A stretch of DNA of 64,000 bases, taken from the NCBI RefSeq assembly GCF_000026545.1, contig NC_011603.1; one strand, 5' to 3'. Every line of letters begins with the position of its first letter. Positions within the stretch are counted from its first letter, which is position 1. The DNA comes from Escherichia coli O127:H6 str. E2348/69 (GTDB lineage Bacteria > Pseudomonadota > Gammaproteobacteria > Enterobacterales > Enterobacteriaceae). Below, one piece after another: positions 60,016 through 63,000 of the stretch. The position numbers are program-made.

Positions 60016-63000
60016 TCATTTCAATAAACCGGGCGACCTCAACCATCCCTTCCTGATTTTCCACTTTCCAGCGTTCGGCACGCAGACGACGGGCTTCATT
60101 CTGCATGGTTGTGCTTACCAGACCGGAGATATTGACATCATATGCCTTGAGCAATTGATAGCTGTCGCTGTCAACTGTCACTGTAATACGCTGCTTCATA
60201 GCACACCTCTTTTTGACATACTTCGGGTATGCATATAAGTATATATTATTATGATGCAAAAATCAGCGCGTAAATACACATACTGTTATCTTACTTTTAG
60301 TAAGCCTTATTTATTTTACCTTGCGTTATGTTAACCAATAAAAATCAAAATCTGACTTATAAAAACAAACCGTAATTATCGCATTCCCGTTTCCGTCAGA
60401 TCCGACTTTCATGAATATCACAACTTTCCGGAAGTGTACCACGCTGTGAAAATCATCATATCACTGTTTTCCGCCCCTGCGCGGCGCATCATAGGTCAGG
60501 GAGATGACACAATATATAGTGTCATTAGCAGCTAAATTAAGCACTACATGTTGTGCTGACGGGAGATGGCGCTGTGCGGCGAGAGAGGAAGATCCGTGAC
60601 TGACAGAAATCGGATCTATGAGAGAAGATAATGGTATATTTGCTTATTATGCAATTAAAAATAACTATTATTGCCATATTTGCACTATTGCTATAAATGC
60701 ACTAATAATAAGGTTCTATTGCCAAAAACAATCATCTGGAGATATTTGCCATTCACTCTCATCCATAACCTGTTAAAAGCGGCTCGGGTTCAGATCAATT
60801 ATTTATTAACCGGTGATGGATAAAATGAAACCGGAACGAGATATCCCTAATATAAATGAAATTATGCGTAGCCTTCGGGCATTCATCAGCGACTGAATAA
60901 AGGTATCAAGGAATGTATCCCGTATTTGAGAATGGCTCATGCTGGGTCAAGGTCGATTTTCACCTTCATACCCGTGCAGACAAAGAATTTCGCTATGCCG
61001 GCGAATCCGACAGATATATTCGCGATTACGTCAATGCCCTCAAAGCGGCGGAAGTGAGCGTGGGCGTGATCACCAATCACAATAAATTCGATCCCGGCGA
61101 GTTTAAAGTATTGCGGAAAGCCGCGCGCCGTGAAGGTATGGACCTGCTTCCCGGCGTGGAGCTGTCCGTTAATGATGGCCAGGCCGGCGTGCACACGCTC
61201 GTGGTGTTTGCTGATGAGTGGTTTATCAATCCACAGCAGACGAACCATATTGAAAGTTTCCTTACGGCCACGTTTGCGGGCGTTGATAATTTTGAGAATG
61301 AAAATGCCCGTTCAACAGAAAATATCACACAGACCATCCAGCGCCTTGACCGGTATGAAAGGGATTACTTCATTGTATTTGCTCACGTGGAGGCCCAAAA
61401 CGGGTTATGGGGCGGGCTGAGCCCAGGCCGGATCGGGGAGCTTTTTGATAATGACCTTGTCCGCCGGCGCGTGACGGGATTTCAGAAGGTGATGACCCAC
61501 GACCTGCGGGTCAAAATTAAGGACGTGCTCGGTGAGCGCTATCCTGCCGAAGTCCAGGGATGCGATGCCAAAACGCTGGATCACATTGGTGCCAGAAAAG
61601 TCGCCAGCTATCTGAAGCTGGGGGATTACAGTTTTGAAGCCGTCCGCTTTGCGCTGCAGGATTTTCCGCATCGCGTCAGCGGAGAGAAACCGGCCCTGAC
61701 CCACAGCCATATCCGCCAGATAGCATTCGAGGGCGCCGGTTCGCTCGGTGGAACCGTGGTGAAATTATCTCCAGAACTGAACACCCTGATAGGGATCCGC
61801 GGCAGCGGCAAATCCTCCATCCTTGAAGGGATCCGATATGCCCTGGACATTCCGTTTGGCGAGAAGGCCTCTGACCGCGACTACAAAGAAAATCTGGTCA
61901 GTAATTTACTGAAAAGCGGAGGGAAAATTACCGTTGATGCCGTGTGCCGTCACGGACGGGCCTATCAGATAGTTCGCATTTTCGGTCAGGAGCCGCAGGT
62001 CATTTTTGACGGCCAGGTCCGGCACGGGGTGGCGCTACGGGAAACGGTTCTGCATAAGCCAGTGTATTTTGGCCAGAAAGATCTGTCCAATACCGGTGCC
62101 GGATTTGAACACGATCTGATAGAAAAACTGGTCGGTGAGCGTCTGGCTCCCGTACGAGAGAAAATCCGGCAGCAGAATGCGGTCGTGCTCGACAGGTTAG
62201 TCCAGCTTCGCCGTCTGAAAACATCGGGAGAAGCGCTCTCCGAATGGCAGGCGAAAGAGAAGGATGCGCAGTTCCGCCTGCGCTTCTATGCCCAGCATGG
62301 CATGGAAGAAAAACTGGAGCGTCAGACCACCTTCGGGCGGGATGAGCGCTATCTCAGCAGCAGCACTTCCCTGGCAAGCCGAGCGCTGGACAGTCTGCAG
62401 GACGGAATCAGGGAGACTCTGGACGGGCTGAAACAGGAGCAGAAACATGAGTCAGCACATAACCAGGCGGATATTGATGATTATCGTGAGGGATATGACC
62501 GCTTTACGACTCATCTCAGCTCCCTGAACACCATTGTCGACGGTGCCCGCCAGATCCTAGATGAGCTCAACGTTAAGCAGCAGGCCTTCCTGCAGAAAAA
62601 GCAGGCGCTGACGGAGGAATTTGCCGAAATAGAACGTGGCCTTGCAGAAGAGCTGCGGCTAGCCGGGGTGGAAAAAGCAGATCCCGCCGACTTCCTGAAG
62701 CTGAAAGCCGGGCTGGAAGTTGCGGAACAAAAAATAGCCGAGTTGACCCGGGCTGAAAGCAGCCAGACGTTACTGGAGAAGAGTCTGACAGAAGCGCTAA
62801 ACCGATTGTCTGAACTGTGGGTGGAAGAGTATCAGGAAATTGAAGCCGTGCTGGCTGCCATCAACCAGGCAGATTCGCCCCTGAAGATCGTGCCGTCCTT
62901 TGCGAGCGATAAAAAAGCCATGCTGGCCGTTCTGAAAGAAGCCTGTACTGGCAGCCGGTTGAGGGAAAGTACCTACCAGACCGTGGTTGACAGCTTCAGT

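Follow-up and report, generated by a model that had tools for sequence, protein, structure and literature searches.

The 64,000-nucleotide stretch from Escherichia coli O127:H6 str. E2348/69 analyzed here (contig NC_011603.1; hereafter, the window) corresponds to the E. coli plasmid pMAR7 (NC_010862.1), with 100% identity across the region of interest, in which a resD-ccdB-ccdA gene set on the minus strand is followed by a plus-strand gene for an 873-aa protein of the TrlF family. The 713 bp between ccdA and this gene (60200-60912, the ATG being at 60913) are non-coding, with no conserved open reading frame (ORF). According to our analysis, this gap is the junction of the plasmid backbone with an inserted gene unit and comprises, in order, the ccd promoter/operator, a region homologous to oriV-1 of the F plasmid, the core of the resolution site rfsF, and the 5' end of a 3-kb trlF unit:

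58864-59673, minus strand: resD, Phage_integrase family (Pfam, 66.8 bits), annotated as a site-specific integrase in pMAR7
59981-60199, minus strand: ccdA, start codon at 60199; ccdB lies on the same strand
60200-60312, minus strand: homologue of the ccd promoter/operator, 90.3% identical to the F sequence directly upstream of ccdA
60313-60589, no strand assigned: oriV-1-homologous region, 84% identical to F and 99% to pMB8236_1, rich in inverted repeats
60590-60617, plus strand: rfsF core, a 28-bp inverted repeat
60618-60633, plus strand: purine-rich tract ATGAGAGAAGATAATG, directly after the right arm of rfsF
60634-60725, plus strand: A/T-rich repeat array
60726-60912, plus strand: trlF leader, with the invariant TTCAGATCAA and the Shine-Dalgarno sequence AAGGA
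60913-63534, plus strand: trlF, encoding a TrlF-family protein with PHP and ABC/SMC-like ATPase parts (873 aa)

The original prediction described positions 60260 to 60912, a span which begins within the ccd operator, as an A/T-rich intergenic region with a cluster of reiterated short motifs. The span does have 62% A+T against 49.6% in the whole window, but clear A/T-richness is confined to the ccd operator (69%) and the array at 60634-60725 (75%), the 277-bp middle part having only 57%. The motif cluster coincides with the array: it is a real feature, slightly mis-counted, and it lies on the cargo side, beyond rfsF. Two small ORFs of 52 and 50 aa which run over the array were discarded, since they are not conserved and meet a stop after 19 codons in one related locus (L007; related loci are designated by L and a number).

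The rfsF core consists of an 11-nt arm, a 6-nt spacer, and a second 11-nt arm (AGATCCGTGAC-TGACAG-AAATCGGATCT), and the geometry AGATCCG-nnAC-N6-nnnn-CGGATCT was found in 18 of the 18 related loci examined. In a study of IncI1 plasmids, nt 43,620 of R64 is the start of the segment "rfsF to yfcA" (PMC8004404), and nt 45922 of F is given as the start of RepFIA with rfsF (PMC4398462). Both coordinates map to the outer end of the CGGATCT arm (for F, as computed from L004, NC_002483.1), and therefore we place rfsF of pMAR7 at 60590-60617. The palindrome ATGACACAATATATAGTGTCAT (60504-60525), our first candidate for the core, was dropped, since both the published coordinates and the natural junctions indicate 60590-60617 instead. 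The tyrosine recombinase ResD would resolve plasmid multimers at this core. The rfsF-like ResD site which had been proposed for the gap is thus present, but the motif cluster is not part of it. The purine-rich tract next to the right arm, which follows every primary site and the secondary sites listed below across unrelated cargos, is probably an extension of the recombination site.

Alignment of pMAR7 with F, with pMB8236_1 (same ccd/resD genes, with a cargo encoding a cyclic oligonucleotide-based antiphage signaling system [CBASS]), and with the ETEC1749 plasmid (different integrase module, same cargo) revealed a mosaic. Identity to pMB8236_1 is 99% up to 60589, 79% across 60590-60617, and 25 to 60% beyond, and identity to the ETEC1749 plasmid is 30% in the ccd operator, 75% in the oriV-1-like region, and 100% from rfsF onward; taken together, the two alignments confine the switch to 60599-60601 at single-base resolution. 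Likewise, homology starts at the first spacer base in the plasmid pairs F/L015 and L011/L017, and the rfsF core region is found in at least 5000 plasmids of PLSDB, with many BLAST matches ending at 60600/60601. Homology between plasmids therefore breaks at the boundary between the rfsF arm and the spacer. Of the loci matched in a genome-wide scan with a 16-base rfsF pattern, only ten were genuine, most of the matches being due to chance, and a search of a phage collection found nothing similar.

From the first spacer base (60601) to 63597 there extends a discrete trlF unit of ~3.0 kb, joined at the arm/spacer boundary, which adjoins at least five different integrase modules. Its far end and the beginning of the next unit comprise the following features:

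63566-63584, plus strand: intrinsic terminator, GCCGC-AAAT-GCGGC followed by TTTTT, present after trlF in all orthologues
63586-63613, plus strand: degenerate second rfsF-like site, TTTTCTGATTA-TACCTT-TTTTGGTTCT, at the 3' end of the trlF unit
63636-63712, plus strand: 5' module of the next unit, made up of ~17-bp CATATGC-type repeats and followed by vapB (63733-63963)

The right arm of the secondary site has decayed in pMAR7 and is intact in L010 to L013 (TTTTCCGATTA-TACCTT-TTTTCGGATCT), the whole intact site of L013 being TTTTCCGATTATACCTTTTTTCGGATCT. Orthologues without disruption by an insertion sequence show CAATTTTCCGATTAT, a spacer, and TTTTCGGATCT after the terminator, that is, an rfsF-like site with a degenerate left arm. 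In F, rfsF lies at nt 45922-45949 and a degenerate second site (AGTTCCGGTTT-TACCTT-TTTTCGGATCT) at approximately nt 41090-41117. Secondary sites were found 2 to 5 kb downstream of the primary one, in the same orientation, in pMAR7, F, L007, L010 to L013, L016, L045, and L120; since the half-site model has a background of 6 matches in 1.95 Mb of unrelated DNA, such an arrangement is far from chance. Beyond the secondary site lie the 17-bp repeats and vapB in pMAR7 and Serratia proteamaculans, whereas in a Shigella plasmid there follows the flank of a CBASS unit (a cyclase and a four-transmembrane [4TM] effector), 96 to 99% identical to plasmids which carry CBASS directly at rfsF, the homology beginning at the first spacer base. 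By BLAST, the repeats at 63636-63712 are homologous to those to the right of the rfsF-like site in the Salmonella Dublin virulence plasmid (L020). In the pMAR7 annotation, no vapC is given after vapB.

Three pairs of plasmids represent filled and empty states of the site: F versus pA17EC0016-1 (pif, 4.8 kb), L011 versus L017 (trlF), and L016 versus L104 (CBASS). The plasmid pA17EC0016-1 matches F up to rfsF and resumes 4.8 kb further on, at 99% identity, with the first spacer base of the secondary site; because the classical pif (T7 exclusion) region of F, with pifC, pifA, and two more genes, is exactly absent from it, we consider this region to be one unit. Units also occur in stacks, for example, trlF and then CBASS (cyclase and 4TM effector), in the Shigella dysenteriae plasmid L011 (3838-8158); trlF and then vapBC; CBASS, a degenerate site, and then a pifC homologue, in L016 (3696-7230); and pif followed by a further unit. 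In L120, pifC and further genes precede vapB. Most of the cargos seen are anti-phage, fertility-inhibition, or toxin-antitoxin genes. The trlF unit of the Cronobacter dublinensis plasmid pA137-2 (L009, 3929-6870) has no integrase nearby and a broken frame with 23 in-frame stops; before it stands AGATCCGGCTT, similar to the 3' arm of the CBASS unit (GCATCCAGCTT), and the trlF unit looks like a decaying internal member of such an array of units.

These discrete units, joined at the arm/spacer boundary of rfsF, are stacked in one orientation. In the pairs F/L015 and L011/L017, the left flanks are 93 to 95% similar and the right flanks 99%, an asymmetry which suits an exchange between two plasmids no less than a simple insertion. 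Furthermore, the spacers differ between the two junctions of one unit, which is unusual for the classical two-step reaction of tyrosine recombinases. ResD would be the enzyme making the joints, either through free circles or through cointegrates between primary and secondary sites of co-resident plasmids. Earlier studies noted gene-set exchange at rfsF for IncI1 plasmids and insertions "just downstream rfsF" for IncR plasmids (PMC8004404 and PMC9412624); we found no description of such units in the literature searched. It is conceivable, though in our estimation the balance falls slightly short of it, that rfsF/ResD serves several plasmid families as a common platform for cassette exchange, beyond dimer resolution, with degenerate rfsF copies at the 3' ends of the units. 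If so, trlF, CBASS, F pifCA, and possibly vapBC would be units reshuffled among IncF, IncI, IncK-like, IncR/Klebsiella, Serratia, and Edwardsiella plasmids, and the TRTTGC array described below would be the common 5' module of one cassette class, acting either as a regulatory input or as a cassette-side part of recombination.

When we compared the regions upstream of trlF in plasmids of E. coli (IncI-gamma), Serratia, Edwardsiella, Klebsiella, Cronobacter, Citrobacter, and Shigella, the array proved to be built on hexamers of the type GCAAYA/TRTTGC. In pMAR7, these read on the plus strand as follows:

60651-60656: S1, GCAATT
60669-60674: S2, TATTGC
60686-60691: S3, TATTGC
60699-60704: S4, GCACTA (decayed)
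60717-60722: S5, TATTGC

In nine trlF upstream regions, the hexamers stand at identical offsets of 33, 51, 68, 81, and 99 nt from the rfsF arm, in the orientation > < < > <, and without a single indel over 105 nt. Their mean pairwise identity is 85%, compared with 55% for the intervening columns, and random placement of five 6-nt windows gave equally conserved sets in 1 of 20,000 trials, a figure which is optimistic because these same sequences served to define the motif. Identity among the trlF genes is ~90%, and ~80% at third codon positions, so that the intervening columns of the array fall well below the third-codon identity. Both the sequence and the spacing of the array thus appear to be constrained, as judged from these alignments. 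The CBASS units retain S1, S3, S4, and S5 at the same offsets, and a related array of direct TTRTTGC repeats lies upstream of at least four further cargos. In the leader, the last 125 nt are 84% identical, whereas the positions from -200 to -126 are only 52% identical; because the depth of divergence differs, the 5' module is either older than trlF or exchanged separately from it. The distant TrlF homologues (at most 57% identical) belong to trlF-trlG operons with other upstream regions and are of no help for footprinting.

This conservation is stronger evidence for the array than the word counts from which the cluster was first noticed. The original prediction had at least three copies of each of two motifs: ATATTTGC does occur exactly three times (at 60636, at 60676, and at 60742, just beyond the array), but TATTGCC only twice (60669 and 60717), the third copy being TATTGCT (60686). 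In 5000 dinucleotide-preserving shuffles of 60618-60760, some 8-mer was present at least three times on one strand in 28 cases, and TATTGC at least three times in 38, and the excess of the motifs over chance is therefore modest. These numbers would suit a cluster without sequence-specific function, in which an A/T-rich spacer of low complexity and a 17-nt tandem duplication yield the repeated words. Indeed, Tandem Repeats Finder (TRF) detected a 17-nt unit in 2.1 tandem copies at 60669-60704 (TATTGCCATATTTGCAC / TATTGCTATAAATGCAC), and exact ATATTTGC is specific to the pMAR7 lineage and not conserved in the orthologues. We nevertheless consider a neutral spacer quite improbable, given that five hexamers and their spacing are kept in nine lineages amid neighbors whose identity lies below that of synonymous sites in the adjacent gene, that no indels occurred, and that the CBASS unit, too, retains four of the five positions. 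A resemblance of the 17-nt unit to the C1 operator of P1 (ATTGCTCTAATAAATTT) amounts to ~10 of 17 positions, mostly A/T, and is unsupported.

We tentatively favor a cis-regulatory role for the array, as the promoter/operator module of the trlF unit itself, bound by a putative factor. According to this proposal, an oligomeric or cooperatively binding protein, supplied by the host or by the plasmid backbone and not encoded in the trlF unit, would occupy the hexamers, and their occupancy would control rightward transcription into the ~190-nt leader and trlF. The array moves with trlF and not with ccdA and resD, and its hexamers are phased and constrained in spacing, as sites of cooperative binding are. 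By analogy, its position is also that of the TAGCATT words which stand immediately upstream of pifC in F and R64. Other cargos have other words in the same place: vapBC of the S. Dublin plasmid (L020) is headed by ~17-bp repeats of the CATATGC type, a gene for a DNA-binding protein has TGTATGTA in front of it, and a small gene of Klebsiella has ATGATAT. Units whose first gene encodes a DNA-binding protein (vapB, pifC, and the "DNA-binding protein" of L018) each have a repeat type of their own there. Moreover, S4 reads TGCAATAAT, which resembles an extended -10 element, at a conserved position in six orthologues, and the two trlF copies which lack the array (L013 and L014) have a co-oriented gene abutting the leader, from which read-through transcription of trlF could occur.

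Several observations weigh against a trlF operator. A strong and position-conserved sigma-70 promoter was not found in the region, the trlF unit encodes no regulator, and we know of no factor which matches the hexamer. The array is common to the unrelated trlF and CBASS cargos and has its TTRTTGC relative before others, which is as readily explained by a module belonging to the site as by an operator specific to one gene. The upstream sequence co-diverges with trlF only from ~125 to 150 nt before the ATG onward, and since this part survives in the truncated L013 and L014, the main trlF promoter may sit in the leader. Finally, a fixed distance of 33 nt to a recombination arm is what would be expected of an accessory recombination element. 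Sharing by cargos, late co-divergence, and fixed distance therefore favor the principal alternative, in which the array would belong to the recombination site as accessory DNA on the cassette side, a counterpart of the "17-bp direct incomplete repeats" of the crs site of pSDL2, and would help to assemble or orient the ResD synapse or bind an architectural host protein instead of controlling transcription.

On this alternative, the start of the array would be expected to keep its distance from the right arm of rfsF, as it does, free of indels, throughout the trlF and CBASS units; each primary or secondary site leads into a purine tract and, after it, a repeat array; a period of 17 nt can be made out, and the S. 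Dublin plasmid has an array of 17-nt period at the same place; and the evolutionary depth of the array is unlike that of trlF. Krause and Guiney (1991) reportedly counted the 17-bp repeats of pSDL2 as part of its crs. Yet the arrays differ wholly by cargo (TRTTGC, CATATGC 17-mers, TAGCATT, TGTATGTA, and ATGATAT) while the recombinase arms are constant, and one accessory factor could therefore not read all of them. The array type does not track that of the integrase, multimers are evidently resolved whichever array is present, and trlF copies without the array persist. We accordingly hold a role as accessory DNA to be unlikely, though not as improbable as a neutral spacer, and the regulatory module of the trlF unit remains our tentative preference.

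The original prediction also had the promoter of the 873-aa gene within the gap, which is a reasonable presumption. Our searches of the gap returned only weak sigma-70 matches, none of them both strong and position-conserved, and no sigma-54 pattern; promoter-like sites in the region are no more frequent than in shuffles. The leader contains a weak promoter-like pair, ATGAAA (60825) and TAATAT (60853), 17 nt apart, and its last ~125 nt diverge as the gene does. The pair TTGCCA-16-GATATT (60719-60746) reported by the scan tool was rejected, since it is not conserved. No rightward promoter-like site was found in 60313-60617, and thus no platform promoter was detected. An inverted repeat in the leader (60761-76/60806-21), in which changes seemed compensatory on inspection, was tried as an RNA structure and dropped, as its 69% pairing is no better than in shuffles and shows no covariation; for a structured RNA leader in general, RNAalifold gave only weak invariant hairpins, with a covariation term of -0.17, and no Rfam family matched. 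One further feature lies in this highly conserved leader:

60825-60896, plus strand: mini-ORF of 23 codons (MKPERDIPNINEIMRSLRAFISD)

The 5' half of the mini-ORF is conserved and its 3' half is altered by a 2-nt indel (L008, L009, and L013) or by loss of the stop (L012); with frame or stop lost in 4 of 10 orthologues, it was not accepted as coding for a leader peptide.

The trlF product matches NCBIfam NF045780 with 540 bits (cut-off, 350) and, partially, the anti-phage Ppl model of PADLOC (E = 3e-36). The name of the TrlF family derives from the TRL operon of Photorhabdus (PMC7554251). In pMAR7, trlF is a solo gene, while its next closest homologues (at most 57% identical; Yersinia ruckeri, Klebsiella, and Pseudomonas) each have, directly after them, a gene annotated "RNA-binding domain," probably trlG as in the Photorhabdus TRL operon. 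Among the matches listed, intermediate TrlF homologues were not seen, the band of 60 to 80% identity holding 1 record.

On the ccdA side of the gap, comparison with the rfsF and ori-1 regions of F, as the original prediction had suggested, brought out homology to known cis sites throughout. The proposed ccd operator/promoter, which CcdA/CcdB would control, is there, at 60200-60312, separate from the motif cluster. The F operator has 113 bp with eight CcdA2 sites and central GTATAC palindromes ~12 bp apart, and the sequence specificity of CcdA2 is low (PMC5389731). In pMAR7, the homologous stretch occupies the same place directly upstream of ccdA and is 90% identical, but its palindromes have diverged: the three central positions read GTATGC (60227-60232), GTATAT (60239-60244), and TCATAA. 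A promoter scan predicted the following elements of a ccd promoter, with a spacing of 18:

60245-60250, minus strand: -10 element, AATAAT
60269-60274, minus strand: -35 element, TTTACG

The oriV-1-homologous region at 60313-60589 is probably accessory DNA of the resolution site. Its repeats include the following:

60426-60433: TTCCGGAA
60508-60519: inverted 12-mer, CACAATATATAG
60544-60555: inverted 12-mer, CTACATGTTGTG

A third rfsF arm motif, AGATCCG, lies at 60398-60404 (region 60382-60408), flanked by a purine-rich tract on the opposite strand; the arrangement mirrors the right arm and tract at 60611-60633, ~190 bp away, is kept in most related plasmids, and may be the "second rfsF site" of some annotations. 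An origin remnant, the third possibility raised for the gap, is present insofar as this oriV-1 homologue exists, but the motif cluster lies elsewhere. That the cluster should itself descend from F ori-1 (oriV-1), as an A/T-rich unwinding element or as initiator-binding repeats, could be argued from its A/T-rich, repetitive character and its proximity to the oriV-1-homologous region. PifC is said to be needed for ori-1 replication (Tanimoto and Iino), the equivalent stretch of F reportedly carrying PifC sites. Nonetheless, this origin is by far the least probable of those considered: the array is only 38% identical to F and moves with the cargo instead of the backbone, no DnaA box with at most one mismatch occurs within the gap, and searches for DnaA and IHF consensus sequences gave nothing convincing. 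With tblastn, F PifC and RepE had no significant match in the 64-kb window, the rest of pMAR7 lying outside the search. The order in F is rfsF, oriV-1, ccdAB, and resD, which puts oriV-1 between rfsF and ccdAB, on the opposite side of rfsF from the cluster (PMC4398462).

On the other side of resD, we observed a divergent pair of partition loci (56216-58726), in which the minus strand carries parM/parR-like genes (56216-57584) and the plus strand, at 57813-58726, genes for a ParA-like ATPase and a 91-aa ribbon-helix-helix-like protein. This double locus presumably resembles par1/par2 of the enteropathogenic E. coli plasmid pB171. The ParA-like pair is found with the resD module in several unrelated backbones (L005, L007, L010, L015, L016, and R64). 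At 55247-56211, two overlapping plus-strand ORFs of 228 and 138 aa look, by eye, like halves of a UmuC/ImpB-type polymerase split by a frameshift, possibly a pseudogene.

As first described, the feature is for the most part ordinary. Its ccd operator, oriV-1 homologue, and rfsF belong to the textbook elements of the F plasmid, and its motif cluster is a small upstream array. The cluster, as a conserved 5' array of a trlF unit inserted at rfsF, is a modest result alone, the junction structure being the more interesting lead. With the position of rfsF fixed and the cluster assigned to the cargo, studies of the control of TrlF, a defense candidate, should start from the array and the conserved leader. 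The junctions suggest that anti-phage and toxin-antitoxin genes, including the T7-exclusion pif genes of F, spread as units among enterobacterial plasmids via the resolution site; if ResD catalyzes the exchange of units, a very common "housekeeping" function of plasmids also shapes their defense repertoires.

Among known systems, the closest is rfsF/ResD of F, with which pMAR7 shares the order resD-ccdB-ccdA followed by the site, 84 to 90% identity up to that site, and the 28-bp inverted-repeat core with the identical outer arms AGATCCG/CGGATCT. The two differ in the spacer and inner arm (TGACAG AAAT in pMAR7 and TTGGGG TTTT in F) and in what lies beyond, the trlF unit in pMAR7 and pifCAB in F. 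The autoregulation of pif by PifC at pifO, reportedly described by Miller and Malamy in 1983-86, offers a parallel for the array: in both plasmids, short words in both orientations lie between the purine tract at rfsF and the first gene of the cargo. However, the motif is TAGCATT in F and TRTTGC in pMAR7; the F unit encodes the regulator PifC, whereas the trlF unit has none and its first gene is trlF; and the distance from the arm to the first gene is ~155 nt for pifC and 295 nt for trlF, which lies behind a long leader. The crs of pSDL2, or the corresponding region of the S. Dublin plasmid L020, has the same constituents, namely, a repeat array, a core, inverted repeats homologous to F oriV1, ccdAB, and a recombinase gene, and a remnant of its 17-bp array is found in pMAR7 upstream of vapB. 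The rfsF-side array of pMAR7, instead, consists of TRTTGC in both orientations and has no sequence similarity to it: BLAST places the pSDL2 repeats at 63608-63700 of the window and not at 60634-60725, and TRF counts 4.6 copies of the 17-nt period in L020 against the 2.1 of pMAR7.

Integrons, with attI and attC, and the pdif modules of Acinetobacter offer a wider comparison. A tyrosine recombinase gene lies beside a well-conserved primary site, the units end in a more degenerate copy of the site and are stacked one way, and the same unit is found in many backbones. In contrast to these systems, the recombinase here is Cre/ResD-like instead of IntI or XerCD, the secondary sites take the form of double-stranded, half-degenerate copies and not of folded attC hairpins, the spacers at the two junctions of one unit differ, and an excision circle and the dependence on ResD are hypothetical. 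Whereas integrons have a platform promoter, the units at rfsF probably carry their own 5' modules and terminators.

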